Below, one piece after another: positions 3,001 to 33,006 of a DNA stretch of 64,000 bases. Under the pieces are notes generated by a model. That model had not been told where the DNA came from. It saw only the letters and a program-made list of their open reading frames with translations, and ran no database searches. Where the stretch lies: NCBI GenBank assembly GCA_008632985.1, contig QPGO01000145.1, positions 1 through 64,000 of the forward strand, read 5' to 3'. This stretch comes from Psammoneis japonica. Taxonomy: Eukaryota. A program made the position numbers and the translations under genes. The first letter of the stretch is position 1. Each line of letters starts with the position of its first letter.

Positions 3001-3031
3001 TTTGGATGACGTCTACGTCATACCAAGTTGA
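1..3031 (+). CDS. G8/CEMIP/PKHD1-like beta-helix protein with about 3 C-terminal CBM4_9-like domains (5' part outside the window; intron 339-418)
   Basis: HCYMLEDGGEIDNVF..NLG, STFWMTNP.N...GNVAAGS..GFWFEL motifs; repeated L(I/V)RNGDF(E/S) ... DDV modules; GTAAGT..TAG intron joins ORF 12-356 to ORF 440-3031 in frame (RTYP|NGY). Confidence 0.8.
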
Positions 3032-3263
3032 ATCTTAGCTACTTCATATTTCAAAGTACAAGGTACGGCCTCTAGTGGCTACTAACTAGGGCCTAGAGAG
3101 AGGCGATCTGCGATGGCCTCTTGCGGTCGCGGCGTCGCGGCATTGCTCATTGCAGATTGCAGTCGTGAGCAAGATGCTGGTCGGAATTTGCATCATATAT
3201 TACATACATACAAATAAAATGAATGATATGAAGCACATCTGCCTAAATGTTTTAACAATATGG

Positions 3264-8688: not shown

Positions 8689-9169
8689 TGTTGTTTACAA
8701 CTTTCGATTTTTCAATATTTTGAGCCATATTTCGTATGGTATGCTGTATCCTTCTGCTCTCATCTTCCGTTGAAACACCCCCACGTTTTCAGCGGGTGAC
8801 AGAAACCTACCGACAACTGCATATCCAACGTCTGTTTGCATGTCATGGTCCTCGGAGTCCCGTCATGAAACACATGAGCTTGGGCATTGTAGCAAATGGA
8901 AATGAACATGACCGGAAAAGGCCGCATAATGCGTTTTCCGTTGATAGCATCATCGTGTGGGCCAAAAGTCTGTGATCCACTCTAAAACATAATATTTATG
9001 GCATTTGGTTTGTCGTGCTGTATGTCCCAACTACAGATCGCGCGCGATCGATCGAGCGATCGAGCGATCGACGGCGAGCGGCCAATGAATGAAGCAATGA
9101 GCAAGACTCCAAGACCAAGACGGAAGATCGCATCGAGCAATGCAAAAAGCAATGCTAGTGTGGCACTCT

Positions 9170-10570
9170 AGACCACAACATTGTTTGGCTTTTGCTTTTC
9201 TTAGTTGTGTCCGACAGACTCGCAAGACTTTCTTTCCCTGGCACTGCTGGCGCAGCATCTTTCTCTGTGTCAGCATCGTGAGTCAAGACCGTGATGATCC
9301 CAACATTGTGCTGTGCATCAGTGACACAAACTTTGAAACATGCCATTTGATGCTCACACGCATGGAATGCTCACACTTTTTGTTGCTCACTTTGGCAACA
9401 CACTGCAAATGACACGCTGATTTCGGGGGGGTTGTGAACAGTGGGGCCAGCAGGGGGGGGTGATTTTTTTCATTGACCACAATCCTCAGCTGCTCAAGCA
9501 CATTTTCTCAAGTTCTTGAGAGTGGGCAAGATCGAAAACATGCTGCCTCAACCACATCATGAAAACGGGGGTTTCTGGCACAGGCTTCATGAGGACACTG
9601 TGTTCCATGACTTGTTCCTTGGACAACCTTGCCTTCCGGTTGGCGCAGCCCTCTGGCACACTCACTCCCACTGAATGCCCAGAGTTGTGGTGTTTTCTGC
9701 ATCCTCAGCTTGGACTGTGGATGCAAAATGGCACATCATGCAGCAGCTCCTCTCACACAAGTGACAAGGCCTGTGTTGGTGGATGGTGTGACGAGGCCTC
9801 TGACACAGCCAGACAATGGTCACTCCAGATCAAACTTTTGCAGCACCAGACATGTGTGTTGCTCTGTGTTTGTCCAACGTCACCCACTGGGCACAATGCT
9901 GAGAGATTTCATGCTGCAGCTTGCTCATTCTGGCTGGCTTCAAACAATGCAATCTTGGAGCTTCTGGATGGACTGCTGCATGGTCAATCTAAGAGATGCT
10001 GCTGTCAACCAACCCCACATGCTGTTCTCCTTGACACATGAGTGTGTTGTCGCGGGGTGCAGCATCCCTGCTGGCAGCTCAAGGCATTGACTGATGGAAA
10101 GACATGGGAGAAACGCTTCACAAGAATCAAACAGACCCTGGAGTTTTTGATGAGACCACCCTGTGCCCCCTCATGGAAAACACTCAGATTTTTAACCTTG
10201 CTGAGTGAGAAGCACCACCTGCTGATTGTGCTGTGTGGTGTGTGGCCAACACAATGATGTCTTGAGAAAGGTCACCAACTCACATGGCAACTGCAAAGTG
10301 CTGACCAGTTTGTGGATTCTTCCAAATTTGCTGTGCAGTGGAATCTGGCATTTGCGACTGTTGGCAAGAAACTTGTCTGGAGACATTTGGTGATCTTTGG
10401 GAGATGCAAGGGGGGGGCTCAAACTCACGAGGCATCTTTCTCGCAGAGTGCCCTGTCTCTCACCAGTCTCTGGAGGAGCTCTCATGTGTCTGTTGGGCCT
10501 GCTCACAGTGCACCTGGTCAATGACTGCAGAAGTGCTCTGTGAATTTGACATGCTCTGACGACTGTGGGA
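9170..10570 (+). pseudogene. Hypermutated copy of the BTB-discoidin gene family (intact relative at 54949-56011, minus strand)
   Basis: Colinear with the reverse complement of about 54880-56110 including both flanks, e.g. caagaccg(c/t)gatgatccc, ggcaagatcgaaaacatgctgcc, ggatggtgtgacgagg; frameshifted; ATG->GTG and stop TAA->CAA (10407). Confidence 0.9.
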
Positions 10571-10990
10571 CCCCTTGAGAGGAGTCTGTCACATCAGCAG
10601 TTTACCGTACATCCGTGACTGCGCTGCCGCATCCCAGACCCTGGTGGGCGCAGAGGACCCGGAGAAACAACTTCCAAACTCCCCGCAGGCGCCGCCATCA
10701 GCCATGACGGTGCAGCACCGGCAGGCTAAACAAAAAGTGAAAACCGCAACAGAAACCGCAATGGCAAGAGTTAGCTAGAGCCTCCGTTTTCATCTGACAA
10801 CTGTTTTCACAGAACTAGCTATTGGCATTCCGATTAAGCGACAGAAGATAACGCTCGCTTGGAATACTACGAGACTCTCTTGTTTCGGATTTCGGACCGT
10901 GGTCGTATCGACAGACCTGTCTATCATAGCTATCACGTTCGGGTTCGTTTCAGTCCGTTCATCCCCTTCATTATCTGGGCGAAGGCAACA

Positions 10991-11488
10991 ATGGAACCGC
11001 AACCACCACTCCCCACCAGCGTCCATCTCATCATGGGCTTCTTGGTAGTCAGCTGCGTGAGCTGGATTGTGGGTCAGGGGGGCGCGCTGATCGACTATGA
11101 TACCGCGGCCGAATGGGGCTTGCAAGTTGACAGCCGCAAGGACGCCGATCCCGTTGTCATCGAGGTCTCTCGAGGCATCGCTGTTGCTGATGTGTATGTT
11201 CAGCTTCCTCTTTTTATCCTCGCAATCTTGGGTTTGAAGCAACGGGAATTTTACGGTGCAGTGCTGACCTGGATGGCACTGGGGATGAACTTCTATTGGA
11301 CGACAGTGGCTTGGGCTAAACTCTACTTTTTCCAACAGGCAGGCGTCAGGTGTCAACCAATTCCAATCGGCCTTAACTGCACTTTGGTCTTCATTGACTT
11401 TTTCTCATTTTGGGCGTCCTGGTATCTCTACAACAACAAAGACTTCTTATTCATTCTGCTGCAAAAGCCCAAGTTTCGGGATGAATAG
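10991..11488 (+). CDS. Small multi-pass membrane protein of unknown function
   Basis: About 4 hydrophobic segments in ORF 10859-11488; first ATG at 10991; normal TA/CG content. Confidence 0.6.
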   Translation: MEPQPPLPTSVHLIMGFLVVSCVSWIVGQGGALIDYDTAAEWGLQVDSRKDADPVVIEVSRGIAVADVYVQLPLFILAILGLKQREFYGAVLTWMALGMNFYWTTVAWAKLYFFQQAGVRCQPIPIGLNCTLVFIDFFSFWASWYLYNNKDFLFILLQKPKFRDE

Positions 11489-11719
11489 AAAGCATTACAT
11501 GGCGCAGTTGATCAGAACAACGCCCAACAATGCAGAAGACTTTATCAGAATCGTAGCAAAGTTCCAGGTGAGTCGCCTAGAATGTACCAAGCAACATGCA
11601 AATGGTAATTCTAAATTCTAGAGACACTGTAGGCTAATCACCTTTCAGACTCTAAAGCAATTCATGCATGAACCAAACACAGCGTGCCATTGCCACAAAA
11701 TGTCTTTCGTGCGCAAGAA

Positions 11720-12060
11720 GATGGAGACGCAATTGGAGCTTTGTATCATTTGAAGGTTCTGCACCAGGACACAACAACAACTGCCTTGAACTGCATGTAT
11801 GATATCCGCAGCACTTCTTTTGTGACGCCATCGATGGCAATAAGGTATGCGAGAAATATGTTAACTCCGAGGGCAGCTCCACCGCCAATAGGTGAACATG
11901 CTCCGACGTGAATCATTGTAACTTCTACTGTACTTGCATCCTCACCCCGGACCACATCGAGTACGTACGTCGCGAACCGTCATTACGGCAACGCAAAGAC
12001 TGCCGCTTCTACTCTCTTGCAGTAGTAGCCACTAGTAGAGAGCGGTGGATAACGCAATGA
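11720..12060. repeat. Dispersed repeat, lightly mutated copy (homologous to about 21175-21510)
   Basis: tggagctttgt(a/g)tcat(t/c)tgaagg, cagcacttcttttgtg and catgctccgac are shared and colinear between the two loci. Confidence 0.75.
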
Positions 12061-12775
12061 AAAATCTTACGAGCAGTTGTCTATCATATCTTGCTACGTA
12101 AGTTATTCGCTTTTCGATGCGGCTTTGCCTTCTTGCAATTATCTCACATTGTTCCCGCCGCAGCACTTTCTAACAGTCTTTCCAGTCCGAAGCTCTTTGC
12201 ATCTCTCATCAGGCTTGGCAGTCCAACACGGCCGCTTTAGTCTATCAGATTGGAAAAAGCAGCTCCAGTTTTGTTGCTCGCGTGTCGGCTCGGTGTTCAA
12301 ACAAAACATTCCTGGGATTTGAGAGAAGTATGATGCGCAAATGTCATCGTCACCTTCCCGAGTCATAACTACATCAACAAAGAGTGAGCAGTGCCGCATC
12401 ACACCTCCAGAAAGTGGTCGCGTTGATAGATGAGACGTACGCAGGGATTTTAGAGCTAGCTGTTCTGTGCGCGTGCTACCGCTATGAAGTGGCGTCGTGA
12501 TTTCTAGCTGTAGCCTCATCCTGTTCCCCAGCTGGTGGCGACGTCAATCAATGCATGCCGTCAACCTGTACGCAAGCCCAACTTCTGAAACAGACCCGAA
12601 TTGGCTGCTGCCTTCTAGCTTAAACCTTAGCTCGCTGTGTTGGTTGTGAAAGAGGCTCGCAGGTTTTCTTAACCACTCGACAGATCAATGGGTCTGACCT
12701 TGTACAACTTACATTCGTGCGACCTAGTAGATAGGTCACTCATGGATGGTCCCGGGCAACGACAATGCTGCTGGT

Positions 12776-15592
12776 TTAAGCGTCAAATAAAGTTTTTCTG
12801 TTTTCGTCGTCTTTTTCGTCGTCTTGCTGAACACCTAGCTCCGGTTCCGAGAATGTAGATTCGAATGCGTCGTACTCTGTTGCTATCTCATCGGAGAACA
12901 TCTGTAAAACCACAGGTTTGCAATGAAGCTGGAACCTGTATCCCAACCCGTTGGCTTCAAACCAGTACCTAACACTCTTGACGTTATGATTATTATCATA
13001 TAGTTTGATGCCGTTGCCTTTTTTCCAGATCATTTCTTTGCTGTCAGGGACTGTCCCGATTCGCAATTTCCTGTTGCCTGCAACAAAAAAACCCTTTTCG
13101 TCGGGAATAAGTGCCTCGTGAGGTCGCACAGCTCTGTTCTTGTTATGCATTCCGGAAATGCTGTCACTAGATCGTAGAAGGATGTTCTCGATCAACTGCC
13201 ATGCTTCAGAGAAAGATAGCACGCGTTCCATAAGAAATAATTTGAACCCCACCTCTTCGAACTGTCGATTCATGTTGTCGACGCGCCTTTCTAAGTAATG
13301 CACTCGCATTCGTTCATCTTTATCCATCCGTGAACCTTGCAATGAGTGTGCGTGTACATTTGTCTTCTTCTTCGAAATGAGAGTTTGTTGAAGCCCACCA
13401 CCACCGCCGACACCCGCTTCCTCATCGTCATCGGGAAACATTTTCTCCAGTTCTCTAATCTTGCGCCTGTTCCTTTTGTTTTCAGACGCTAGAAGCCTTA
13501 CTTCGGCTCGGAGCTCCTCGAGCTCAGAAACTTTTGCTGCATCCCCTGGAATGCTGTCACGCTGTCCAACAAGCGGTTCTGATGCTGCTTCCTTGCCATG
13601 GCAGACTAGTTCGCCAGAAATGTCAACCAGTCGTAGTTTAGAAGATTTACTTGATTGTAAATCTTCGCCGATATACTTCAAACACGAATCCTTTGCGATA
13701 ACACCAAGGCATTCCAAGACGAATGTTGCTTTTTCGTCTTCATCAGCTTTTTTCAAATGGTTGTATCTGTCGTGATCTTCTTCCCAAAGGTGAAGAACTC
13801 CGACAGCAATAGTGTGTAGGTCATCAATAACCTTGAGACCGATTGGATCCAGTTCTTCCAAGGAAATCAGGTGAACCTTTCGAAGATGGCACGACACAAC
13901 CTTCTTCAATGGCTCCAGGATTGACGTCTTTATCTTTTCAATGATCGACGTAGTGTCCTTGCCGGCACCAACTTCGAAGTCGGAAAAGTTATCCATTACG
14001 CATATTTTCTTCGCAATACATCGATAGGCCAGCATGTAGCTATCCCTGCTGTTGCCATTGAAGAAATCTTCAAATATCCAGAGAAAATTCTTTTGTTTTC
14101 TTTTCAGCGGATAGGTGCACAACGAGATGATGATTGATGCACAACCCAAGAATGGGAGGTCGCTTATTACGAGACCCTTACCGACAACGTTGAGGACAGC
14201 AGCAATTGTTCCCTGGAACTTTGAGGTCAAGGCAACCGACACTGTGCCGCTGGAAATGACTTCGGCTGCAAGATAGGTTCGTTGAAACGACTGACAAAAG
14301 GCAAAGAAGTAAGCCTGAACGTGCCTCGGCATGTCTTCAAGCTCCTCGGGAAGACCTTGTATGGATTCTAGCGATCGGTCAAAATCCTCAATCTTTGCGG
14401 TGAGTTTCTGTAATGCGTTGTACTGTTCGGGGGTGAGCTGTGCCACGTCCAAACTTCGCTTCAGTTCCATGAGTTCATTTGTAGACTCGACGCCAGCTGG
14501 GCCAACACCAGTCGACTGTAACCGAGCCTCCAAAGACACAATTTGTTTCTCTAGATCGGGCACTGAAGCCCACTGAGGCAAGCTGTAAAGAGGAACAAGG
14601 GCCTCGTATTCCGCTTCGGCGCGCGCAGCAGCTGCCATTACATCTGGATCTGTCACACCTGTGGCCGCCTCAATAAAGTCTTGTAATCTCCGCACTTCTT
14701 CATCTAGTGCAGCCCTTGTTGGGAACTTCTCAGCACGATCCATTTGAAACTGCTCTTGTCTGCTCGCTTCTTCTTGAGCTGCTGCTACTCCTACAAACAA
14801 AAGAACAATAAAAAGAACAAGGTCGCGTGAGAAACAACATTTGCAGTTTTGCACTTTACAGAATCACACCATGCAGCAATTCGGCGGTAAAACCGACAAA
14901 CGCAATAACGCACGAGTCAGTTTTGGCCGAGGCGGCGGATTTCGAGTCTTGTTCATGTTTTGTTCCACCAATGCCAGAATTTTGCTTTTCAACGCATCGG
15001 AAATGCCCGAGTTGAAGTCCAGGTTCAAGCCCGTCAAACTCCCATTGTGTTGTTGTAGCATTTGCAGCAATGCTCTTGAACCGTCGTCACCAATTTGGTT
15101 GGAAGCAAGACGGAGCCACTTCAATGTGGCATTGGTTGCAAGTGCCATTGCGAGCGCTTTTGCACCGGCGTCACCAATTTGGTTGTATCGAAGATCAAGC
15201 CCTTGCAATGTGGTGTTGGTTACAAGCGCCGTTGCGAGCACTTTTGCAGCGGCGTCGCCAATTTGGTTGCCGCTAAGACCAAGCGCCACCAATGTGGAGT
15301 TGGTTGCGAGTGCCTTCGCGAGCTTTTTTGCACCGTCATCACCAATTTGGTTGCTCATAAGATAGAGCTCTTTCAATGTCGTGTTGACTGCAAGAGCCGT
15401 CGCGAGCGCTCCTACACCGGCGTCTCCAATTCGGTTGTCGTCAAGATTGAGCTCTTTCAATGTGGTGTTGGTTGCGAGTGCCGTTGCGAGCGCTTTTGCA
15501 CCGTCGTCATCAATTTGGTTGGCGTCAAGATAGAGAATTGTCAATGTGGGATCATTTTCCCGGAGACGGCGGCAGGCTTCGTCGAGTTTCAT
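12776..15592 (-). CDS. RNI/NLRC3-type leucine-rich-repeat protein with a long coiled-coil C-terminal region (predicted intron 14791-14913)
   Basis: About six 28-aa repeats N.TL..L.L..NQIGD.GAKALA.AL; phase-1 GTGCGT..TTTGTAG intron fuses ORF 14864-15646 to ORF 12776-14854 in frame. Confidence 0.75.
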
Positions 15593-15819
15593 GCTGCTGC
15601 TGCTGCACAAGTGGGAATCACGTGAGACCCGTCCACCCACACACAACCAAAAAGAGATGCAACCAAGCTAAGAGCAGTGCACAACAACAAGAATGGATCG
15701 TTTGTGCAGTGTGGTTGCGTGTTGCGTTGAAAATGTGCACGTGAAAGCAACGCGAGTTTGAAGTTGTGTCACATGTATGTATGAATACTCTCTACTACTC
15801 TAGGGCCCTAGCTAGTCTA

Positions 15820-15994
15820 CTGTCCTCATCCAGTGCCAGAATCGGGGAGAAGACCCATTACCTATTGAACCACGTACGCACGTTGGAACGTGCTGTAATA
15901 AGGGTTGGTTGTTGTTTTTCTTCGGTCACCGGCCTGTCTCATTCTTTCAAGATCGACAAAGACAAGCCGCTGTCGTTAGTGTGGTTTAATCGCT
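15820..15994 (+). repeat. Split direct repeat A1
   Basis: ctgtcctcatccagtgccagaatcggggagaag ... gtttaatcgct, repeated at 20346-20516. Confidence 0.95.
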
Positions 15995-16099
15995 ATAAGA
16001 CTGCGACGCAGGATACCTCCGCCGTCTTTGTTCTATCGCACAAAGAATTCGACACGACACGCAGTGTGAACAACCAACCACCAAACGCCGTGAATCCTG

Positions 16100-16760
16100 G
16101 TGACGGGCAACCGCCCGGGCAACCACCGCAACCACCGCCAGCACTTCACAGATTCCCGGCAGGACCTGGACACGTGCGCCGAGGACCCAGCTGTGGAGTG
16201 CTCCCGGAATCCAACGCCAGTGGCGGACATGCAGCATCACATGCAGGTGGAGCTCACATCTTGGTTTCGGCTGCAGGAGATGGCCCACAACGCCGCGGTC
16301 CCTTTCCATGCGTGCCAAGTGGTGGGCGATGCTTCGAAGGGAAACGACTCATGGCGTCACACGCTGCCACCTGCAATCACACTGGTTTCCGGGAGCGCGC
16401 CCGCCCCAACTGCTGCGACTCCCTCGTTGGCCCAGCCCGTGGGTGGTGCCGCACAAAACCCACGCCCAGGCGCACCGGGCGACAACACGCCAGTGCGCAA
16501 CCCCCAATGCGACGAACGTTTCAATGCCGTCCGCGATCGTCCCAACGTTGGGTCGCGGGAGGTAAAGCGGCATTGCACTCAGAATGGGGTCGCACTGCCG
16601 GTCGATGCACAAGGAAACCCACGGTGCCTCCCATGCCACTTGAAAGGGCAGCGCAACTCCAACTGTGGGTGTGTGGCAGACCATCATAATGACCACGCGG
16701 AGAGCGACCAGGCAAACCTCCTCACGTGGGCAACGGAGCATTGGAAGACCAAACAGGTCT
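16100..16760 (+). pseudogene. gag-like ORF remnant of the YR retrotransposon
   Basis: Cys/His cluster CLPCHLKGQRNSNCGCVADH immediately upstream of the RT region. Confidence 0.55.
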
Positions 16761-16949
16761 TCGGCAACGGCCCGAGTTCGGGGACTCTGGGCCGAGAGCC
16801 TTTTCAGCTGCCACCGGCATCGTTGGCAGTGCCGCCACCCCCGCAGGCGGAGAGAATCACAGACAGCAACAACCGCAGCACCTCACGCACGCAGGCCATT
16901 GCACACGCTGTGCAGACTGATGAACCAGGTGAGCAGACATTACTTGACA

Positions 16950-18960
16950 CACAATTGCTGCGTCTCAGAGGACTGAGTTACTTGTTGCATCGCCGCAGCG
17001 GCAGAGGGGACTGGGGACCGTTGCACCGCACACACAAGCACCCAGCCCACAGGCTGCTGCAAAACTGCAAATGCCGCGGCGTCCCCACAACCCTCGCAGA
17101 CGCACCTTGGACACCTCAAGAGCTTGAAGCAAGTTTGGCCAGGGGGGCACACAAGTCCGCCTGTGAGCATGTTGAGTTCCTGCGGGAGGACATGGCCGAC
17201 TGCATCGACAAGGGTTTCTGGGTGGTCCTCCCACATGAGGACATGAAGGAAACCCCAGGATTGCGGCTGAGCCCCATTGGCGTGGCACCCCAGTGTGGTC
17301 GGCGACCACGACCGATCGTCGACTGCACCTTTTACGGCACCAACAACGCGACTCAGCCCAACACCCCGACGGAAGCCATGCAGTTCGGCCGCACCCTGGA
17401 CCATTTGCTGCGCCGCATTTTGCTGGCAAATCCATGCACGGCCGGGTTCACCTCATGAAAGTCGACCTTGCAGATGGCTTCCATCGGGTGCACCTTAACC
17501 CCGATGACGCCCAACAACTCGGGGTGGTTTTCCCACACCTGCCGGGCAAACCCCCTTTGGTGGCCACACCCACACGGTTGCCCATGGGATGGGCCAATTC
17601 GCCACCGTGTTTCAGTGCCGCTGCCGAGACGGTGGCCAACTTACAGCTGGTGCGCGCCGCGACAGCGCCACCACACCCATTGGAGCAATTGGCATCCAGC
17701 CGGGTGCCAACCCATGTGCCCCCACCAACCTCACCACCCGCAACAATCGCTGTGCCGATTCCGACGTCACCAGACCCACACCTCAACCCGAGCCGCCGCC
17801 GGCGCCTAGCCTGCATCGACACATGCGTCGACGACTTCATTGGCGCTGCGCAGGGGTCCGCCGCAGCCCAAAGAAACATGCATCGTGTGTTGTTGCACAC
17901 AATCGACGATGTCTTCCGCCCCACGGATTTGAATGACGTTGCTGCCCGCAAAGAGCCCGCATCAGTCAAAAAGCTCCGCAAGGGTGACGCCACATGGTCC
18001 ACACAGAAAGAGGTGTTAGGCTGGCCAATTGACACCCTGGCAATGACACTCCGACTTGCCCCTCGCCGGCGTGCACGTCTGCACGACACACTCTACAAGG
18101 ACTTCCCCCGCACACGCAAACGCGATGCCGTCCAGGATTGTCAGAAACTCCTGGGAGAACTGCGTTCCCTCGCGGCAGCCATGCCCAGCTCGCGAGGCCT
18201 GTTCTCCAAATTGCAGGAGGCCCTCCGCCACACTACACCAGATTCACGCATCCGACTTGCGGCCAACGTACATTCCATGCTGGACGATTTTCGTGATCTG
18301 CACCAGACCCTGGACTCACGTCCTGTCCGCATCCAAGAGCTCGTGCCACTGCCTCCAACTGCACACGGCTGTCACGACGCTGCCGGCCACGGGGCCGGCG
18401 GGGTGATCGTGCCAACGCCCACCGCAGTCCCCCGAGCCGCCAAGCTACGCCATTCCTCTGGCCGGCGTTGCACTCAACGTGATGCAGGCCCTGTCGCATG
18501 GCGCCTGCGATTCCCCAAGGACATCTCCAACTCACTCGCCACGTATGAGAATCCACACGGCCCCATTGCCAATGCCGACCTTGAACTAGTCGGTGGCATC
18601 GTCCATGCCTGCGCAGCTGCCGACACTTACGACATCCGCGAGCGCACCAACCTCAACCGTGCGGATGACCTTGGCACCATGCATTGGCAATGCAAGGGAT
18701 CGACCACCACAGTGAAACCGGCTTCAAAGCTCCTCCGGCTCCAAGCGTGCCATCAATGCCAACATGTCACACAGGCCTCCATGATTGTCACCCGGGCACT
18801 TGGAACCGAGCGGGTGACGACGCTTCGCACTTGCAACACTTGTCTAATGTCGCGTTCCTTTCTTGTTTGAATTCTGCTTACCCACAGAGCAAGTCTTGGC
18901 GTCTGTGGACCCCGCCACCCGAACTGCGTTCTTACGTGATCTCGGCGCTGTGCAGGAAGC
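16950..18960 (+). pseudogene. Reverse transcriptase-RNase H of the YR retrotransposon (frameshifts near 17435 and 18760)
   Basis: LRLSPIGVAPQ..RRPRPIVD, KVDLADGFHR, RLPMGWANSPP, T[C]VDDF, KEVLGW, DAAGHGAGG, NADLELVG, N..GDDAS. Confidence 0.88.
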
Positions 18961-20041
18961 AGTGCAACGCAGCGTCACCTCTTCCCGAGCCTCCGCCGCC
19001 GACACCCACTGGAACCTTTGGATCAACTTTTGCCGCCAACTGGCCATCAGTCCATTTCTCGAAGACACCAACGATCCCATCCTCTTCCTGCAAGTGTTCC
19101 TCCATCGATTCCGCACCGGTGTCATCACACCAAGAGGCAATCCCGTCCGGGCGCGCACCGCTGAGGATGCCCTGCGGTCGGTTGGGCAGACGTTCGCTGC
19201 AATGGGGTCCGCGGACCCACGTCTCACACCCCAGGGCGGCATGGATTTCCGTCTTGCCCATCAAATCCGTTTTTACAAGAAACAGGATCCGCCGCCCGAC
19301 TGCGTTAAACCAGCTCCAGTCAGCGTCCTCCTCTGGATCTTGCACGCCGCCGCCCTCAGCAACAGCGCCGGCACCAAGGCCATTGCGGATGTGATCACAA
19401 TCGCCTTTTTCTTTTTGCTTTGCCCGGGTGAATGCACAGCCATGCCATCCGACACCACTCCGTTTCACTTGGCAGATCTTCGTTTGACCTCGGGCGGAGC
19501 ACATTTGAACCCATTTGCCACCGCGGCCCCTGCCCTCTTCGCCGCCACCCTCAGCTCCCTCACTTTCGCCACCCAGAAAAGTGGCGTTTGCGGCAAAGTC
19601 ATTGCGCACAGCCTGTCAGGCCACCCAGACCTTTGCCCAACCAGGGCCCTCGTCTGCCGAGTTGTTCACTTGCGCACCTGCGGAGCGCAACCCGACACCC
19701 CCCCAGGGGTGCACTTTGAGAACAGCAGGTGGCACGCCGTTTCCCCTGCCGACATCACGTTGGCACTCCGCACCGCCATCATTGCCCCAGGTCCCAAGAA
19801 CCTGGGCTTCACACCGGCCAATGTCTCATCCCGCTGCCTTCGTGCAGCAGGCGCAACGGCACTGTTGTGTGCCCATGTCGACACCGACCCAATCCGCCTC
19901 TTAGGCCGGCGGCGCTCTGATGAGATGCTGCGCTGCTTGCGCCTGCAAGCCGAGCCTGCCATGCATGGCTTTGCACAAGCCATGCTCGCTGGGGGCAATT
20001 TCGTGCTTCACCCGAATGCTGAAGTGCCCATTGCCCCGTAA
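18863..20041 (+). pseudogene. Tyrosine recombinase of the retrotransposon; frame open but catalytic residues mutated
   Basis: IAFFFLL[C]PGE[C]T, TQKSG, LCPTRAL, LRAAGATALL, RLLGR[R]RSDEMLR[C]L, where LRPGEY and GRWRS....RY are expected. Confidence 0.9.
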
Positions 20042-20140
20042 CCATGCTCCACCAGCCCTCCAGATGGGCCCACCCGCCCAGTCCCAATGCATGTTTGGCC
20101 AGCTGCTGCACCGCCTGCACATCAGTGGGTGGCGCTGGAA

Positions 20141-20344
20141 GCCCTGCCGTCCAGCTTTGGGTGGGGAGAAAACCTTCACAGCGCCAGCAAAGCCATCTCC
20201 ACTCCAAGCACACAATGCATTCCATGAAGTTTACATCACTTTAGAAGAGAGCACGTGACCAGTGGTTTGAACCCACCGTTTCATTCCAGGAGCGCGCTCG
20301 TCCATCCCCGACACAAAGCACGCATGAGCAAAGTGGTGGCAACC
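20141..20344 (+). repeat. Split direct repeat B1
   Basis: gccctgccgtccagctttggg ... gtggcaacc, repeated at 20537-20739. Confidence 0.95.
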
Positions 20345-20345
20345 G

Positions 20346-20516
20346 CTGTCCTCATCCAGTGCCAGAATCGGGGAGAAGCCCCATCACCTGTTGAACCACG
20401 TACACACGTTGAACGTGCTGCAAGGGTTGGTTGTTGTTTTTCTTCGGTCACCGGCCTGTCTCATTCTTTCAAGATCAACAAAGACAAGCCACTGTCATCA
20501 GCGCAGTTTAATCGCT
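20346..20516 (+). repeat. Split direct repeat A2
   Basis: Copy of 15820-15994. Confidence 0.95.
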
Positions 20517-20536
20517 CCCACCTCTCCCACCCTCTG

Positions 20537-20742
20537 GCCCTGCCGTCCAGCTTTGGGCAGGGAGAAAACCTTCACAGCGCTGGCAAAGCCATCTCCACTC
20601 CAAGTGCACAATGCATTCGATGAAGTTTACATGCTTTAGAAGAGAGCGCACAACCAGTGGTTTGAACCCACCGTTTCATTCCAGGAGCGCGCTCGTCCAT
20701 CCCCGATGCGAAGCACGCATGAGCAAAGCGGTGGCAACCACT
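20537..20742 (+). repeat. Split direct repeat B2 (element right end)
   Basis: Copy of 20141-20344. Confidence 0.95.
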
Positions 20743-20849
20743 CCACTAGAGAGTAGAGAGTGGAGACTGTCTGGATGCGAGCGAGTGATGAGAACGTCAA
20801 AAAACGTCTGCACGCCAGTGCGTTTGGGGGTCTTCCCGGTTCAATTGTT

Positions 20850-21180
20850 TGTGCACTCCAAGATCATCTGACGACATGCAGAAGGAGTGTGACCAAGGCA
20901 TGCATTTGGCAAGATCCCTGGAAGACATGAAATGCAAGAGCTTTGACTCCAAGAAGCCAACCTTGCGGGTGTCCACGACAACATGGACAAGAGCTGCCAG
21001 ACCACAGAGCTTGAAAAGAAAGAACAAGAAGACATGGAGCTGGAGTGCAAGTGTAAATTTGACCTGAGAGAGTGCTGTGACAGCAAGGTGAAGCAGTTTG
21101 AAGATGACAAGGTCGCTGCATTTGCCAAGATGCCAGATGATCATTGCACCAAGCCAGTGAAACAGAGAGAGTGCAAGATG
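20850..21180 (+). mobile_element. Degenerate gag-like fragment, homologous to about 39680-39775
   Basis: aagcagtttgaa ... ca(t/c)tgcaccaagcca shared; translations KQFEDDKVAAFAKMPDDHCTKP vs KQFEKNKTATFTRILGNHCTKP. Confidence 0.5.
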
Positions 21181-21510
21181 GTCCCAAGCTGGAGCTTTGT
21201 GTCATCTGAAGGCCCTGCACAATGACACAACAACTGCCATGAACTGCGTGTGATGTGTCATCCACAGCACTTCTTTTGTGCCACCATTGATGAATGCAAG
21301 GCATGCAAGAAACAGGTGATTTCTGAGGGCAGTTCCCTGTCAATGGCCGAGCATGCTCCGACTGTTGCAGCTGCTGCACTGCTTTCATCCTTGCCTCAGA
21401 TCACATTGAGCACGTCCGTCGCAAACAGTCATGACGGCAATGCAACAACTGCCACCACTGGAGTGCGACTGGCAGAGTGACAGCCAGAGAGCAGTGGGTT
21501 GTGCGATGAA
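21175..21510. repeat. Dispersed repeat, hypermutated copy of about 11720-12060
   Basis: Colinear similarity with TA and CG sites replaced by TG/CA. Confidence 0.75.
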
Positions 21511-24228
21511 CAAGCTCAGAATGTGGGGCCCCATGTCTTTCTATGAAAGTTTGACTCGGCTGCCATTTTGCCATTTGATGCGGGTTTGCCTTTTTGCCAT
21601 GTTTTTTCACATTTTTCCTGCCACAGTGTTTCTCACAGTTCTTCAAAGATTCTCATGCATGAGGGGTTTCCCACATCTCATCAGGCTCAAGAGGACCTTG
21701 AAGTGCACCCACAATCAACATGTGCTCACACACACACAAGTTTCTGTGATTCTTGACTCACATCTGGGCATCCACAGCTTGCTCCTCATCCATGTTGCAA
21801 GGCAGCTTGTTGATCTCAGCCTCCTGAACAACCTTGTGCTTTTCCATCTGCTTGCTCCATTTCTTCTTGTGCATGAAAATGACTGCCACAACACCAATGG
21901 CGAAGGCTGCCCCCAGAACACTGATGGCCACAATGGCACCATTCAGCCATCCATTGTCCCCGCCACCCTCTTGTTCAGTTCAGTGCCCTCATCAAGCACT
22001 GCAAATGCCTTCTTGAGGGTCTCTGTGAGCTGGATTTTTCATTGTCATGGGGACCAGGAGTGCGGTGCCCTCAAAACACCCTGAAAATGCCTTGTTGAGG
22101 GTCTCTGTGCTGGACTCATCCTTTTCATGGGGGGAGGGGCAGTGTCAGCAAAGAAGATCTCAACAACAATGTCCTCATGGACATGGCCAGGATGATTTTG
22201 TTGGTCTTGTTGCTCCTGATGCAAGGAGTCATTCTCAGGTCACAAGCTTGCAACAATCTCAACCCCCTTGTGTGGTCCCTCTGAAGCCTCCCAATGTCAA
22301 TGAATCTTGTTTGCACAACCATTTCAATGCCACCCCTCAGCGCCATCAGCACTGTGGCAGCAGGTGCTCTGTTGAAAACAGCAGCCTCAAAACTGTTGCA
22401 CAGCACTTTGGCTTCATTGCCAAAGCTTTGCAAGGGGCACAACTCTGTTTCACCTGCAGAAGAGATGTCGCTGGTGAGACCTCCATTGTTGCTGCGCTGC
22501 TGTGTGCAGTGATGGGCATCTCACAGTGCAGCTGCCATCACATGCACTGCAATGCCACACTTGAGCATTTTCAATGCAAACACAAAAAGTGTGCTCTGCT
22601 GACAGCAAAATGATGCCAAAGCTGCAGCACCTTGCATGTTTGTGATCTTGTCTTTCAAAACAGGCTGCACATGCACTCAGTGGCACATGCAGTGCCCAGT
22701 TGCAGTTGCCCCATGTGTCAATTGCAGCAGAGACTTTTGCTGCCCACTGGCTGTCACCACCACATCACTTGTCAACATGGTTTGTTCATCCCTGTTTGAT
22801 TTTGGACAAGACTGGGCAGCAGCCAAGACCCAATGTCTGCACACATGCAAGCAGGATTTCTGCCATTTCCAGTGTTGTGCTGCCAGCAGCTCCAAGCACA
22901 CTCCTCCACCCCCTGTGTCTCCAGCTCTTGTTTTGGGGATGTGCTTGGGCACAGAAGATCTCTGCTGCCCCCCCCCCCCCCCCCCTCCTTGCTGTGGACA
23001 AAAGCTGCCCAGATCTGCACCCCAGCAAGATGGTGCCCACCAATGATCCCCAGCAGTGTGTCACAAACAACTTGTTTTAACAAGGGTGTGTCCCTGGGCC
23101 CAGAGTCTCTCCACTGATCTGTGAGCCCCTCTTCCGGGTGTCATTCTGCCTGCCACTCCTTGGCCAATGGTGTGTGCAGCTGCAGCTGCTGTGAATGCCA
23201 ACCCCACTCTCAAGCCCTCTTTTCTGATGGACTCTCACAGAGTGCTCAAGACCCTGGCTCTTGTCCAGAGGCTGAGGTGCTGGGACGCTTGTGTCCCTTT
23301 GTGGAAGCATGTGAGCAACTCTGCTGCAAGTCTCTTCCACACCTGAGTTGTCTTCTTTTTGACAATTCTTTTGATGGGCTCAAGCTGCTTGGTGTCAGAA
23401 GTGGAAAGTTGCCAAGAGTGTCCTCCCATGTGGACAAGTCATGAGCTGAGTCACCAGTTGACTTGCACCGCAAGAGGAGGATTGGAGCACCACAGGTCCC
23501 AAGTGAGGGGCAGATTGGCACCAGAAATGGGGCAAGATCAAAACCCCAAGTCAGCATCAGTGGAGCAAAGTCTTGCAATTTTTGGAAGAAGAAGATCAGC
23601 AAGATGCCACCACTGGCCTGCAGCTTCAGAAGCCTTCATCACTTCAACACAGTTTGACCAAAGCACAGGGGGGGGGGGAAGCTGTGGAGAGTCTGGGCAA
23701 AATGAGATGACAGACTGTGATGAGAGCAGCAAGTCTGCAAGATTTTTGCTGCAGCTCTCTTCTGGAGAAGAGAAAGGTTTTCTCAGGTGTGGCAGAGATG
23801 AAAAGTTCTTTGCATGTGCAAATGTGCGTTTGAGAGCTTGCAGGGCAGCAAAGCAAGCTGCAGATCCAGACATGTCAATGGACAAGAGAAAACAACAGCA
23901 TGGTTGATGCACCAACTGAAGTGTTCAAGAAGCAAACAGCTGCAAAAAAGCAAACAAAATTTGTGTGGAAAACACAAACCTGACTGTGGAATTTCATGAC
24001 TGAGGTGCAGTGGCATGCAAAACAAATGCAACACAGTGGCAACCTTCCAACAAGTCAACAAGGAAGTCATGATTGTGACAGTGCCGTTCAACAATGCAAA
24101 GAAAAAGCATGCTGGAGTGTCAGCCAGCAAGCAGCAATCAAAAGGAAATGTGTTGAACATGGTGGACCTTGAGCCACTCTCTTTGTGGATGGAACAAGCA
24201 CCAAGATGTTGGTGACAATGAAGTGGGG

Positions 24229-27200
24229 TGCAGCATGCGACTCAATCGTGCCACAGTTGTGGATGCGTGCTGCGAAGGACAGAACAATCACACAGAGTTG
24301 ATCGGAAGTCAAAAATCGCAAACACGATCAATGGATGATGTTGACATCTTGTGTGTCAATGCCAATCGTGTTTGGACCATCTGTTGTCACGATCATGTTC
24401 TCCAAAAGGCCTTTTGTCTGTAGAAGCAGCACAGAAGCTTTGGGCCATTGAGAACTCATTCGGAGAAACCAAAAATCAAAGAGCAAAATTTAATCTCATA
24501 ATTTTCACTTTTCGAACTTCATTCTACTTTCGTTCACACTCGTTCTTAGAGCACAGTGCACTGTGCATGCACACCACAGAAGGTAAAAGCATGGAAAATG
24601 AAAATTTCAACTAATGTGCCTTTGCAAATTCATCTATAAACAGGAACGAATCGCGTCAGTTCTGCTGGAATCGATTTCCGAGCGGAAGAAGCTCAACCCA
24701 AGCAGCACCTCAAGATGGAACGCTGTTTTTTGTCTGCCAAATGACAAGATTTGTTCCAATGCGACCCATTCCAAGCACCTCAGGATCAAGGGCTCTACAA
24801 GTGCGCCGCATTGTCCAAATGCCTGCACCAAGTCATGGTTGGAGAGAATGTCAAGTCCTGAGTCAATGTGGTCCAAGAAATGCGTCCACCATGCAAGGAG
24901 AGACTGTTGGAGAGTCTTTTGAGACCAAATCGAAGAGCCTTGAGTCCACAGAGCAAGAGGGAACCATTGAAAAGTACCTCGAGTGTCTCACAACTCATGT
25001 CCTCCGAGCAAATGCACTCCAGAATCAGAAAAATTATCTTTGAGACGATCTGAAGAAACCAGAGCAGCTTGACAGCAAGAAAGCCTCTGACAGACCCAAG
25101 AGGTCAATGATGAGCGTCCACACAACCCTCAAATCGATTCTAAGTCAAATCTAGTGGGAAACCGAGTGCTGATTTATCAGCTGTCACTCGCACCACAAGG
25201 ATGGCAGCATCAGCCTGCTGTCCAAAACATTGAACCATCGGAAATGCCCTTGATGAGCTGATTGAGGTTTGAGTGGTCTGGAGGTCGGCAAGGACGTCTG
25301 TGACAAAAAAACATGTTAAATCAGGCTCTGACAGTGCAGTTGATTCCAAAACCAAAATGGCTCCAAATTTGGTTCCAAAAATGGTCTCCCACATGGCACC
25401 AGAATAATCCAAAGTGAACAAAAGGTCCAATCTTTGAAAAAAGAATGCCCACATCACGGATTAAAGCCATTCTGAAAATGAACCAGCAAAAGAATGCTGT
25501 GGACACTGTGAACATGATCCAAAACAGTGCAGTTCAAATGGCAATCGCGTGTGGTCGCGTCGCGATGACGACAATGCCGTCCGCAAAGAAGAGTTGAATG
25601 CTGTGGTGGTCCAAGCAGTTCAAAATGACACTCAAAGCAAGTTCTTCAAACAAAGATGAAAAGCGCAAGAGCAAAAATTAAGACTCTAAAATGCTTGACA
25701 AATGAAACTGTCAATTTAGAAAAATTGACCCGATCAAGTCCGATCAAAGATTTGCACTGATCGAGGAGCATGGCGCACTGCAGGACATCTGGAAACCCAG
25801 AAAAAGCATCACAGCATGTCATGCTAGTCCTGTTGTCGCTGTCCACATGACTGCTTCTCAGAGAAAAGCAAAAACAAGCTTCTGAGTGTTCTTCTTGACA
25901 AAGAACATCGTCAGCCCATGATTTTGCGCAAAATCATGCGAAAGTTGAGAACCAAAATGTCCGCCACCAAAAACTTGGGAAGCCAAGGGTGAGCTCTTTA
26001 CGACTGACAGCAAAACCCGAGTTCAGTTCTCACTGTGCGAATTTAAGACTCAATGATGTTCAAACAGTGTGTGTCGACACACAAAATCTTCTTCAAGGTC
26101 AGATGGTGTGATCATGGGATGCGACTCAATGTCCAGTCTTGCAATCATGTTAGACTGCGCAATTGAAGAAATCAAATGGGAATGAAAAGCAATTGCCCTG
26201 TGAAGAATGTTGATGCACTCTTTGATGCAGAAATGTTCCAGCTGAATGCCGATCACATTGAAAAATGTGTTGCGGTGAATGGAGTTAACAACGAGACCAA
26301 TGGTTGTTGACTCACATTGTCACGCCATTGACTCTAATCAAGTGACAGCTGCAGCAATGCATCTGACCCAAAAGAAAACACATCATACAAACACTTTTCA
26401 TGGAGGCGAGCAAGATCAAAAATGCTCATGTCACAAGGAAAAAATCGCCTCATTTGGGGATGGTTGGGAAAAAAATCTGTGACAGATTGGCACACATTGT
26501 GTGCACCTGCTTCACATTGGCAAAAAAAGACAATCTCACAGCACCCGCATGGTTGTAATGTACAATGTACGAGGCAAGACACAAACAACGTCACATGAGA
26601 TGTGCCAAAGATTCAAAAACAAACACAAAAATGGACATTTTCATCCACATGGTGCACGAAAGCAGTGCCTTCGGAATGGCAAAATAACACCGGTGTGTCA
26701 AAAAGAAACGTCCAAATGACAATCAAAATCCAAGGGAAAGATGGTTGAAGCAACAAAGAAATCCATAAAGGAACTCATGACCATCCCAGGATTGTCAAGA
26801 CGAAATGGTCAGAAAATGTCCTTGACCATCATCAATCACTTGCGACACGTGGAAGTGCAGGCAGAGCAACATGGCACATAAAGCAAGCCAGCCAGAACTG
26901 CATGAAATCCACAAGCGAGTGAATGCCACAATTAAGAGCGCACTTTAAGCACTGGGCACAATGGCATGTACAATCAATGTCATAAAAGACGCTGCAGGAG
27001 ATTGAGTCCTTGTGTTCATGTCAACAAAGAACGTCAATGAGAACACCCAACGCAATGCCACACACACACATGTCAAGTGAGAAACAAACAATGTCACTCT
27101 CAAAAGACATTCGGAAATCGTAATGGCCCCACATGGCTCACACAAAACAACAACAGTCAGTCATTGCCAATGGTGCAATGCAGTGAATGTGCAGACATTG

Positions 27201-27636
27201 TTGACACTGTCAACATCCGTCGAACAATCCACTTGACAAATGACTCTAATGTGCAATCAGTGAGGCGAGTGCAGCACGCGACTGTTGTGTGCATGTGTGT
27301 GATTGCACATTGTTTGCACGTCAATCGTGCCACAGTCGTGGATGCGTGCAAAGGACAGAATGATCACACAGAGTTGATCGGAAGTCGAAAATTGCAAATG
27401 CGATTGACAGATGATGTTGACATCTCATGTGTCAATGCCAATTGCATTCGGACTGTCTGTTGTCACGATTGCATTCTCCGAAAGGCCTTTTGTCTGTGGA
27501 AGCAGTGCAGAAGCTTCAGGCCATTGAGAACTTGTTCGGAGAAACCAAAAATCAAAGAGCAAAATGTAATCTCACAATTTTCACTTTTCGAACTTCACTC
27601 TACTTTCGTTTGCACTCGTTCTTTGAGCACAGTGCA
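24229..27636. mobile_element. 3.4-kb insertion bounded by 330-370 bp direct repeats (LTR-like, TG...CA), nested in the copia gag
   Basis: 24229-24560 matches 27270-27636 (second copy has about 39 extra nt); GGGG on both outer sides; no recognisable internal domain. Confidence 0.65.
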
Positions 27637-28761
27637 GGGGGGTTGTCAAGTGCTGACAACTGCTCCAACACTTTGGATGTGGTGGGACAGGCAACAAAGC
27701 TGCCAGCACCCAAAGAAAGACACAATGCAAGAGGCAAAAGCTGGAGGTTTGAGAGCAAGTGCTGTCAGTGCAGAAAGGTTGGCCACCAAAAGAAATTTTG
27801 TTGGCAGCAGAACTGGAAGAGTGCAAGCAAGGTGTCTCAGCAGCACAAAGACAAGATGGCGCTGGGAGGGAGCTGATGTGGATGAATTTTTGATGATGAG
27901 CACATGCAGCTGGAGTTTCCCAAGTCAGCAAAGCTGCTGCATCATGGACCCATGTGCATGGGCCCTGGGCAGCAGATGCAGGAGCAAGTGTGGGCAGCAC
28001 CTGTTGCAAAGCATGGGAGCAAAGACAGAACATGAAGATGTCAGTGACCAACAATGAGGTGCTGATGAACAGCAGCTAAGCCAAGCCAGCTGCAAAGATG
28101 GCAGTTGATCTCCCTGGCACATTGTGTGACAAGTGTGGCAAGGAGGAAGGTGTGGTGAGAATGTGGAGCACAAAAGTCATTCCTGAGTGCTGCAAGTTTG
28201 ACCTGCTCATCATCATGAAACAACAAAAGCAAGGGTGCAAATTGACGGGCAACAACAATGCCACATGGATCACAAAATGGGGTGCAAGGTGGTGTTCAAC
28301 ATCAAGGTTGAAACCAAGGAAGGCCCCATTTCTGCCAAGCACATGAAATGGCAAAATGACCAAGTGGGCAACATTGGAACAGATGGACCCAAGACAATGT
28401 GTGACAAAGCACCAAGGCACATTCATTGTTGGGCCATGTGTCACAGTGAAGCACTTGAGTGATGGCCAAGCACTGTGGTGTGATCCCATGCACCACTTTT
28501 CTATGCAAGCACCCACTGGCAGCCCCTGCGTGTGTTTCCATGCATGCTCTTGCACTGATGATGTCGCCCTTTTCAGACGGCATTTTGCCAAGTCCCCCTT
28601 CAACCTTTTGGCCCCTTCTGCCATTGGTGCACCCTTTTATCTCCATGATGTGCAATGATTTTCAGTGGAAAATGACTGGCATTGACACCTTGTGGTTCGC
28701 ATGCTTGTTGTCTTGTTTGGCAATTTTTTGCGGATTCGGTGCAATTTCTACACAGAATCCA

Positions 28762-32100: not shown

Positions 32101-32611
32101 GAACACCTGCCAGCATGCAAAGGAGTGAGATGGCGCCCATTGCTGCGCAATTGGCAACCAAAGCAAAATTTTTCTCTGCTGCTCAGCAGCATGCTCAGGA
32201 TGTGCTGTTTTCAACGAGGGCACTCAGCCACACTGGGGCTTGAAAGGTGAAGCCACTGGCAGCAATGGCAGAGGCTGACAATGAAGGAGCAAAGGGCTCA
32301 GCAAACAATTGGTTGCTTGGAGAGCACACAAGGCACACCAAAGTGAAGCAATGTTTTTCGCACAAATCAAGGGACAGCGGCATTTTGTTGATCACATCTG
32401 GGCTGGCGGGGCAATCGCACGACACATTTGATGTGTTTGCCAAGAACCCCCAGCTGGGTCCTCATTGTTTGTGAAGCACCCTGAAGCTTTCTCATGGGCA
32501 ACAACAAGTGCATGCAACCCAAAGCTCATGAAAGGAGAGTGTTGGAAGTGGTCAGCCATGAGTCCCGTGTGGACACACACAGTGTGCTGAGTCACCACCA
32601 GCTGAGCTGCG

Positions 32612-33006
32612 GACGCGTTCCAGCCCTAGGTGGGAGCTCGTAGCACTGACGTGTGACACAAATAATTTTTATCATCCATGGTATGTTTCGCACGTACATT
32701 TCTACGTGTGATATTTTAAAAAAATTGTCCAGACTCGCTTTTTGCGAAGCCCCAGACGTTTTATATAACAAATTTATAGAAACAATAATGCGCCAGTTAC
32801 ATTCTTGAATGTCTGAAGAATGTAACTGGCTAAGTAAAAAATGATGTACTTCAATCATGGGCGAGTTTGTGCGTTCGCAAAATTGCCTCATTTTCTGTTG
32901 GCGATCATTGACATTTTAATTACCGTATAATTTTACTACGGAGCTCGCACGTAGAATTCTACGGGCCCAATGTCACACGGATTCCCACCTACGTCTGGAA
33001 CGTGTC
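32612..33006 (-). mobile_element. 395-bp MITE-like element, copy 2 (inverted), TSD TGCG
   Basis: Near-identical reverse complement of 28762-29156; TGCG at 32608-32611 and 33007-33010. Confidence 0.9.

Follow-up and report, generated by a model that had tools for sequence, protein, structure and literature searches.

A 64-kb window of the Psammoneis japonica genome (contig QPGO01000145.1, positions 1 to 64,000) contains a Ngaro-type retrotransposon on its forward strand, at about 15820-20742, that has lost most of its TA dinucleotides and a smaller part of its CG dinucleotides. The window, by which we mean this whole stretch, holds other DNA that has gone much further along the same path, including a duplicated host gene. 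Based on our results, we postulate that the retrotransposon is a dead Ngaro copy in a silenced domain and that two context-specific transition processes acted on both strands of its DNA after insertion. We put the probability of this reading at about 0.78.

The direction of change can be read from paralogue pairs within the window and needs no outside reference. In two pairs, one segment has normal composition and its partner is hypermutated:

Positions 54947-56076, minus strand: intact gene with a BTB_2 domain (E 1.3e-10), the unmutated partner.
Positions 9292-10411, plus strand: hypermutated paralogue of the BTB gene, from its alignment to 54947-56076.
Positions 21190-21453, plus strand: hypermutated copy of the normal segment 11734-12004, with 1 of 23 TA and 5 of 24 CG kept.

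The mutated BTB paralogue keeps 2 of 37 TA sites (14 now read TG and 10 CA) and 6 of 67 CG sites (27 now read CA and 24 TG), and the direction is thus from TA and CG to CA and TG. Over both pairs TA became TG 21 times and CA 18 times. The context is narrow: per base, A>G reached 0.42 in TpA against 0.15 in ApA and 0.09 in both CpA and GpA, and C>T reached 0.38 in CpG against 0.05-0.12 in other contexts. The slight excess at ApA over CpA and GpA is a marginal hint of a secondary preference for a 5' A. The BTB duplication runs about 300 bases past the mutated part and therefore spans its border. At 8981-9156 the copy keeps 4 of 4 CG and 4 of 10 TA, and only one of the six TA differences is of the TG/CA kind; the unmutated part extends over 8981-9290, with a sharp border inside 9160-9290, and from 9292 onward nearly all TA and CG are mutated. 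Both strands and a duplicated host gene are hit, which shows that the process works on DNA that is already inserted.

The same signature recurs across the window in sharply bounded stretches, in which the observed-to-expected ratios (o/e) of TA and CG are 0.00-0.1 and that of CA+TG is about 2. Eight such stretches, and an older domain beside the retrotransposon, are the following:

Positions 9500-10500, 21000-24000, 27500-28500, 29500-32500, 38000-41000, 43500-44500, 47500-49000 and 59000-59500, no strand: saturated stretches, from dinucleotide o/e.
Positions 20745-24300, no strand: older saturated domain adjoining the element, TA and CG o/e about 0-0.2, CA+TG about 1.7-2.2.

CA+TG o/e is at least 1.4 in 56 of 128 windows of 500 bases (44% of the window), and over the same 128 windows TA loss and CG loss correlate (Spearman 0.69). 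Genes in the window have a TA o/e of about 0.5 (0.52) and a CG o/e of about 1.0. As a control we used 80 environmental relatives of the element from metagenome contigs. The joint signature of TA o/e <0.15 and CA+TG >1.5 occurs in 69 of 255 windows here and in 0 of 1314 windows of 500 bases in the loci of these relatives. Borders of mutated domains are sharp and do not coincide with repeat ends. A preliminary description of the region had described the process in the element; it belongs to genomic domains that make up 44% of the window.

The element itself is a 4.9-kb GC-rich block (GC 0.60 versus 0.43-0.52 in the surroundings). Its repeats, 91-93% identical, occur in the order A1, coding region, B1, A2, B2, and it contains three long open frames (16094-17458, 17239-18870 and 18848-20041). 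Its parts are:

Positions 15820-15994, plus strand: A1, the 5' copy of a split direct repeat (171 bases aligned to A2, 12 differences).
Positions 16094-17434, plus strand: first part of gag-pol, a gag-like region and the N-terminus of the reverse transcriptase (RT), ending ...ANP (RT profile positions 102-284, E 5.7e-61).
Positions 17432-17437, plus strand: frameshift within pol, where two frames join at RT profile position 284.
Positions 17431-18870, plus strand: remainder of pol, RT and RNase H (RT profile E 1.7e-166).
Positions 18848-20041, plus strand: tyrosine recombinase frame, 397 amino acids from stop to stop, from homologues and the fold of an intact homologue.
Positions 20141-20347, plus strand: B1 repeat (206 bases aligned to B2, 17 differences, 5 of them TG-versus-CA double sites).
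Positions 20346-20516, plus strand: A2 repeat, aligned to A1.
Positions 20537-20742, plus strand: B2 repeat, the 3' end of the element, aligned to B1.

On a profile built from 40 RT homologues, the first frame ends at amino acid 447 (nucleotide 17434) and the second starts at nucleotide 17431, at the same profile position, 284. Since the two frames join at one position, pol is a single gene split by a frameshift near 17432-17437. The RT/RNase H frame is matched by 3354 library proteins at E <= 1e-3. The third frame has 456 homologues at that threshold (8000 candidates scored), the best with 66% identity, and its family was not recognised in a Pfam search, intact homologues included (the Phage_integrase model fails); a sequence profile search of PDB with it gave 0 matches. 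A predicted structure of the intact homologue P0001 (mean predicted local distance difference test score, pLDDT, 85) matches Cre, with a Foldseek E of 1.8e-6 and a template modelling (TM) score of 0.56-0.69, and this fold search settled the third frame as a tyrosine recombinase.

Ngaro elements, which belong to the DIRS order, are defined by an A-pol-B-A-B repeat order without a methyltransferase domain, in the passages of PMC3783388 cited here. The present element has this repeat order and a separate tyrosine recombinase frame. Its RT/RNase H profile match reaches nucleotide about 18780 and the recombinase frame begins at 18848, which leaves no space for a methyltransferase, and a Pfam search of the element found no Dam-like methyltransferase domain. 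It thus has in common with Ngaro retrotransposons the gag, RT/RNase H and tyrosine recombinase frames, the A-pol-B-A-B repeats and the lack of a methyltransferase domain; it differs in that this copy is degenerate and in that its family's recombinase is too divergent for the Phage_integrase model. Residues needed for activity are gone: the recombinase Tyr, the motif Arg and the first residue of RT [Y/F]xDD are Cys (at 19934, 19421 and 17824), and pol carries the frameshift. By its sequence, the element is a Ngaro member by descent and an inactive, degenerate copy. Contig depth over it is 230-460, or roughly 4-8 similar copies at a single-copy depth of ~55. It differs from those copies by 281 transitions and 44 transversions, and among the 40 places listed the window copy is mutated at 15 of 18 CG sites and at 4 of 5 TA sites.

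The codons on which the preliminary description was built are all present: TGC at 17824 (CVDD), CAT at 17482 (DGFHR), TGC at 17324 (IVDC), TGC at 19934 (RCL, the nucleophile) and CTT-TGC-CCG-GGT-GAA-TGC at 19418 (LCPGEC). In the recombinase, homologue columns give the following changes:

Position 19421, plus strand: Arg to Cys.
Position 19433, plus strand: Tyr to Cys.
Position 19712, plus strand: Tyr to His.
Position 19934, plus strand: nucleophile Tyr to Cys.

Profile alignment of RT and recombinase to intact homologues (40 and 45, respectively), a check proposed in the preliminary description, confirms the conserved Tyr columns. Tyr is found at the nucleophile column in 44 of 45 homologues, at the Tyr column of the LLRPGEY motif in 43 of 45, at DGFYR in 38 of 40 and at IVDY in 27 of 37; the YxDD column has 24 Tyr and 16 Phe among 40. 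Tyr is therefore ancestral, as judged from 40-45 homologues, and the direction from Tyr to Cys/His stands as claimed. So does the statement that the recombinase frame has a single Tyr: there is 1 in 397 amino acids, compared with a mean of 7.6 (range 2-11) in 45 aligned homologues. Taking as conserved a column in which at least 60% of homologues agree, RT/RNase H and recombinase together have 10 conserved Tyr columns, and the element has Tyr at 1, Cys or His at 6 (4 Cys, 2 His) and Phe, Lys or Thr at 3. Conserved Arg columns number 52; the element has Arg at 37 of them (with a CGN codon at 36), Cys at six and His at six. Expressed for conserved CGN-type positions, 12 of 48 are now Cys or His, a CG loss of ~25%.

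The preliminary description went astray at LCPGEC, where it read Tyr and TA damage throughout. The Arg of LLRPGEY is invariant (45 of 45 homologues) and the element has TGC at 19421; the first Cys therefore arose by CGC->TGC, a CG event and not a TA event. Likewise, the view that the TA process disabled the element is right in that the nucleophile and the RT tyrosines were lost, but CG loss (12 of 48 Arg) and the frameshift are disabling as well, and these share with TA loss in killing the recombinase.

TA loss leads CG loss. Counted over 16035-20745, the element has a TA o/e of 0.16, below every one of the 80 relatives (median 0.62, minimum 0.30), and a CG o/e of 0.84, close to their median of 0.87. 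Its 29 TA compare with 184 expected from base composition and 114 at the relatives' median (Poisson P about 2e-21); its 351 CG are within expectation, in agreement with the earlier claim that many CG remain. Six Tyr codons are mutated and 1 is kept, versus 12 mutated and 36 kept CGN Arg codons (Fisher p = 0.0035). Roughly three quarters of TA, by composition, and about a quarter of CG, by Arg count, have been lost; the preliminary description was correct that CG decay is partial but undercounted it, missing the removal of the motif Arg. When windows of 500 bases are judged relative to the gene baseline, 31 of the 128 are low in both TA and CG and 81 are low in neither; of the remainder, 16 have low TA alone and none has low CG alone. 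A leucine-rich repeat (LRR) gene accounts for one of these 16, and its low TA is compositional. It is because 16 windows are low in TA only and none in CG only that we place TA loss first, as had been proposed from the element itself.

The repeats of the element show that sites were hit more than once. Between A1 and A2 and between B1 and B2, 26 of 29 differences are interchanges among TA, CG, CA and TG, and at 6 sites one copy has TG where the other has CA. For such a double site, the ancestral dinucleotide must have been hit twice, independently. Outside the TA/CG class there are only 3 differences in 377 bases, and the insertion is therefore young by ordinary divergence, as the preliminary description held. 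The 5' end is less affected: at the 4 TA-versus-CA/TG sites between A1 and A2, A1 retains TA at all 4, it also retains CG where A2 reads CA or TG, and the first 250 bases of the element retain 22 TA. A second repeat pair behaves in the same way:

Positions 24242-24560, plus strand: left copy of a direct repeat resembling a long terminal repeat (LTR); 35 of 38 differences from its partner are TA/CG versus CA/TG, with 13 TG/CA doubles.
Positions 27321-27636, plus strand: right copy, the partner of 24242-24560.

The element and the LTR-like pair together have 19 TG-versus-CA double sites. A control inverted repeat with normal TA and CG content (28760-29156/32612-33008) has 3 of 12 differences in the class. 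The repeat pairs prove recurrent, site-specific hits after duplication; they give no measure of TA against CG. A repeat-pair clock in which all doubles were taken as TA (67-90% TA loss versus 25-28% CG loss) was dropped as decisive, because the doubles are unassignable and the sites hit once give, by themselves, similar rates for both dinucleotides.

We propose that the DNA of the element entered a silenced domain after insertion. There, a fast process would convert TpA to TpG or CpA, and a slower one would convert CpG to TpG or CpA. The fast process would change TAY Tyr codons to TGY Cys or CAY His and erase TAA and TAG, and the slow process would change CGY Arg codons to Cys or His as well. 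Together with one frameshift, they would have removed the nucleophile Tyr, the Arg and Tyr of LLRPGEY and the conserved tyrosines of RT. The CG part would be deamination of 5-methylcytosine in CpG-methylated repeat domains. For the TA part, our tentative candidate, on which we would not quite offer even odds, is enzymatic TpA editing of the kind found in Bigelowiella natans, in which adenine, preferably one preceded by T, would most likely be deaminated. The neighbour order T > A > C, G suits adenosine deaminases: those that modify tRNA act on an A that comes after U, and ADAR favours U as its 5' neighbour.

Targeting would be by chromatin state rather than by copy number. It is not simply by copy number, because the most abundant repeat of the window is unmutated and one of the two paralogues is spared. 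That repeat is the inverted repeat used above as a control, with a summed depth of 12,000-46,000 versus about 55 for single-copy sequence. It may represent recent insertions of an abundant repeat that are not yet mutated, or protected ends. Its two copies are 97% identical over 401 bases and flank the saturated, single-copy domain 29500-32500.

It is plausible, and in our view probable, that the two processes are separate, as the preliminary description had it. One system, either a dual-specificity deaminase or one targeting complex, could make TG and CA from both TA and CG. TA and CG loss have their domains and borders in common, both are strand-symmetric, and both approach zero, which is extreme for passive CpG decay. 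Moreover, the main text of bioRxiv 10.64898/2026.01.13.699255 cites reports of ADAT2 enzymes that deaminate C as well as A in DNA. Natural sequences argue the other way. Cys or His takes the place of Tyr in one or more Tyr columns of 5 of the 120 environmental recombinase homologues. In one of these, P0003, 3 of 4 Tyr columns are Cys or His and none of 21 Arg is changed, whereas the homologue P0104 has none of 4 Tyr and 9 of 21 Arg changed. By these opposite patterns, TA-only and CG-only decay both occur in nature. In addition, the apparent TA:CG rate ratio differs among domains, almost all changes in the B. natans lines were at TpA (same preprint, main text), and CpG methylation of diatom repeats, to go by the passages of PMC5124317 cited here, would already account for the CG part. 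We consider a single system unlikely.

Another way to obtain the same footprint is through thymine. If T in TpA were oxidised or otherwise modified (to 5-hydroxymethyl- or 5-formyluracil), it would pair with G and give T>C. Oxidised thymines do mispair with G, and in sequence data A>G on one strand looks the same as T>C on its complement. This route lacks a known candidate enzyme or modified base for P. japonica, and the weak 5'-neighbour order T > A > C, G resembles that of adenosine deaminases, with an ApA excess that is marginal. We regard thymine modification as improbable too, at perhaps one chance in five.

Editing of the element's transcript before reverse transcription, by an ADAR-like A-to-I activity, is very improbable. 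The target is a retroelement and the 5'-neighbour preference would fit ADAR. However, both strands are changed (4 Tyr to Cys and 2 Tyr to His in the element; TA to TG and TA to CA about equally in the paralogue pairs), a duplicated host gene collinear with its parent is also mutated, and the element's own repeat copies differ at such sites while its first 250 bases are spared. Native composition or selection, by which the family would simply be TA-poor with Cys and His normal at the positions in question, is hardly credible. TA is under-represented genome-wide (genes about 0.52), and the LRR gene has a TA o/e of 0.21 for ordinary reasons. Against this, TA o/e is at least 0.30 in 80 of 80 relatives, the paralogue pairs give the direction, and the two best-conserved recombinase columns are Tyr in 44 and 43 of 45 homologues. 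The preliminary description had named active relatives with Cys or His at these positions as the test of its claim; at the two most conserved Tyr columns, such residues occur in 0 of 81 recombinase segments from the 80 environmental loci, and the claim stands unrefuted. Since the transitions lie on both strands, followed duplication, stop at sharp borders and extend to non-retroelement DNA, RNA-intermediate editing, native composition and selection are all excluded as main causes.

Lastly, the depleted sequence could be a base-calling artefact. Modified bases cause systematic long-read errors, and 5-methylcytosine in CG together with a modified base in TA might then mislead a long-read assembly. 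Three DNA runs of one sample are available as contigs. In run X1, contigs with a word depth of 52-70, the depth of the flanking genes, cover four depleted stretches (20741-22983, 22968-24303, 27607-28549 and 29811-32640) with 0, 1, 0 and 1 other letters. We take X1 to consist of short accurate reads, judging from exact words at that depth. With the depleted stretches reproduced in this way, with sites between identical flanks at which one repeat copy has TG and the other CA, and with the same Tyr to Cys/His pattern in P0003, an environmental homologue of other source, an artefact is scarcely to be believed.

Several points weigh against our preferred reading of a dead Ngaro copy altered by a fast TA and a slower CG process. 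Single-hit sites in the repeat pairs suggest similar per-copy loss for the two dinucleotides (TA, 6 changed in one copy and 6 kept in both; CG, 17 and 24), and the 19 TG/CA double sites are not assignable with certainty to TA or CG. The split repeats of a Ngaro element may already differ when it inserts. By window composition, the apparent TA:CG rate ratio ranges roughly from 1 to 8 among domains, an estimate that is blurred by uncertain starting compositions. The Tyr sample is small (10 columns), and Phe, Lys or Thr at 3 of these is not accounted for by the process. That the most abundant repeat is unmutated leaves the choice of targets unexplained, and the library type of the runs is not on record.

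The closest known parallel to the TA process is in the chlorarachniophyte B. natans. The main text of a preprint by Mettrop et al. (bioRxiv 10.64898/2026.01.13.699255) describes mutation-accumulation lines in which two viral insertions gained 231 mutations; 230 of these were A>G or T>C, every one in a TpA context, and they arose at about 6e-7 per site per generation. Its authors propose an ADAT2-like DNA adenine deaminase. According to that text, the two cases have in common TpA changes to TpG or CpA on both strands, bounded regions of foreign or silent DNA, and TpA depletion with a gain of CpA and TpG; RT and transposase genes are among the TpA-depleted coding sequences of B. natans. In the diatom, A:T>G:C transitions at TpA are found on both strands, and the affected regions are sharp domains beside genes with a TA o/e of about 0.5. 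The hosts are a rhizarian in one case and a stramenopile in the other. New mutations were observed in B. natans, as the preprint's main text reports, whereas the diatom offers the footprint alone. Furthermore, the diatom process targeted a duplicated host gene, and TA o/e saturates at 0.00-0.05 compared with 0.45 in the B. natans viral region given in the main text. A further difference concerns CG. Hypermutation of the B. natans type would be at TpA only, with GC>AT not raised; the diatom domains also lose CG, to an o/e of about 0, and neither CpG nor diatoms come up in the main text of the preprint, supplements aside. Because CG goes from the very domains that lose TA, the diatom case is either a variant of the B. 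natans process or two overlaid processes. In the openly available full texts searched, no report of this TpA signature in diatoms was found, and the B. natans preprint was the only source of it.

Other defence systems and decay processes match the diatom case less closely. Fungal repeat-induced point mutation (RIP) changes C to T mainly at CpA, creates TpA and stop codons, and affects all copies of a repeat. It resembles the present case in that dinucleotide-specific, defence-like transitions inactivate transposons and leave a compositional scar. In contrast to RIP, the diatom domains have no TpA gain from CpA: TpA is destroyed (o/e 0-0.2), CpA and TpG rise to about 2, and TAA and TAG vanish. 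Nor are all duplicate copies mutated, since one paralogue is mutated and its partner is intact, and the highest-copy repeat is untouched. ADAR and APOBEC act on RNA or single-stranded cDNA and are strand-biased. Their editing likewise produces clustered transitions that cripple retroelements, with a 5' T/U preference in the case of ADAR, but here both strands and non-retroelement DNA are hit, after integration. Methylation in diatoms is mainly at CpG and lies in repeat blocks beside unmethylated gene regions (PMC5124317, in the passages cited here). Decay of 5-methylcytosine would produce the CG to TG/CA pattern seen in the window, limited as it is to repeat blocks beside genes of normal CG; support for methylation comes from other diatoms only. 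Such decay leaves the TA loss unexplained, and the depth of CG loss here (o/e 0.00-0.1) is extreme for it.

TpA-directed hypermutation of resident foreign DNA has thus one prior report, a 2026 preprint on a chlorarachniophyte, and the diatom is a second lineage. The diatom case adds coupling with CG loss, saturation, a host-gene duplicate among the targets and a staged series. The window amounts to a natural time series, from untouched repeats through the element (3/4 of TA and 1/4 of CG gone) to saturated domains. From this series one can read how fast the two processes run relative to each other and how they kill proteins, with Tyr and Arg both ending as Cys or His. A saturated footprint on diatom transposons and on a host-gene duplicate suggests a widespread genome defence of algae. 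We speculate, with more doubt than belief, that diatoms carry a chromatin-targeted editor of TpA in double-stranded DNA, either a natural adenine deaminase or a thymine-acting equivalent. Bigelowiella would then share this defence, which would make it ancient and widespread among stramenopiles, alveolates and rhizarians (SAR), and together with CpG methylation the editor would erase all self-complementary pyrimidine-purine steps in silenced DNA. If so, the outcome would mirror fungal RIP, with stops vanishing and Tyr and Arg converging on Cys/His. If the agent is a deaminase that attacks TpA in duplex DNA, its activity would be new among enzymes and of interest for base editing.

Loss of TA changes the apparent coding content of the mutated domains. 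TAA and TAG occur at 0.5 and 0.2 per kb (both strands, 21000-24000) compared with 7.5 and 7.6 in genes, and at 0.2-0.9 per kb in the mutated domains overall compared with about 7.5. TGA is as common as elsewhere (25 per kb in 21000-24000 versus 22 in genes). The preliminary description stated that the process removes TAA and TAG and does not create stops. These two codons are indeed scarce, but TAA can be turned into TGA, which is still a stop. Depleted domains (for example, 21000-24000, 29700-32400 and 38000-41000) contain many open frames of 150-340 codons on both strands, and a Pfam search of 6 of them found no family. The many long, family-less frames are therefore a result of TAA and TAG loss. 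Such spurious frames are a likely source of false gene models and could pollute annotation.

The LTR-like repeats bound an element of their own (24242-27636). They are 88% identical, its copy depth is 1,800-16,000, and its TA and CG o/e are 0.05-0.3 and 0.4-0.8, respectively. Several contigs join the two repeats and leave out about 3.1 kb, which is what solo-repeat forms at other places in the genome would produce.

We also considered whether TA loss spreads from the mutated DNA into the neighbouring LRR gene (TA o/e 0.21). This was rejected: 291 of 367 differences between its repeat units lie outside the TA/CG class, and the low TA content is compositional. At 15187-15365 a contig of run X2 skips 177 bases within the tandem LRR repeats, whose unit is 84 bases, and differs there at 9 letters, which fits a variant or paralogue with two fewer units.

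Intron-poor genes of the window include those for a monogalactosyldiacylglycerol (MGDG) synthase, a desaturase and a cyclase adjoining a phosphodiesterase. An aspartyl protease shares 62-76% identity with proteins whose names come from Craspedostauros, Fistulifera, Nitzschia, Seminavis and others, and these homologues place the host in the pennate diatoms. Fused cyclase-phosphodiesterase genes are a type that occurs in diatoms, and at 61628-63999 (minus strand) a guanylate/adenylate cyclase frame lies directly ahead of a cyclic-nucleotide phosphodiesterase frame of the same orientation; the two may be one fused gene.

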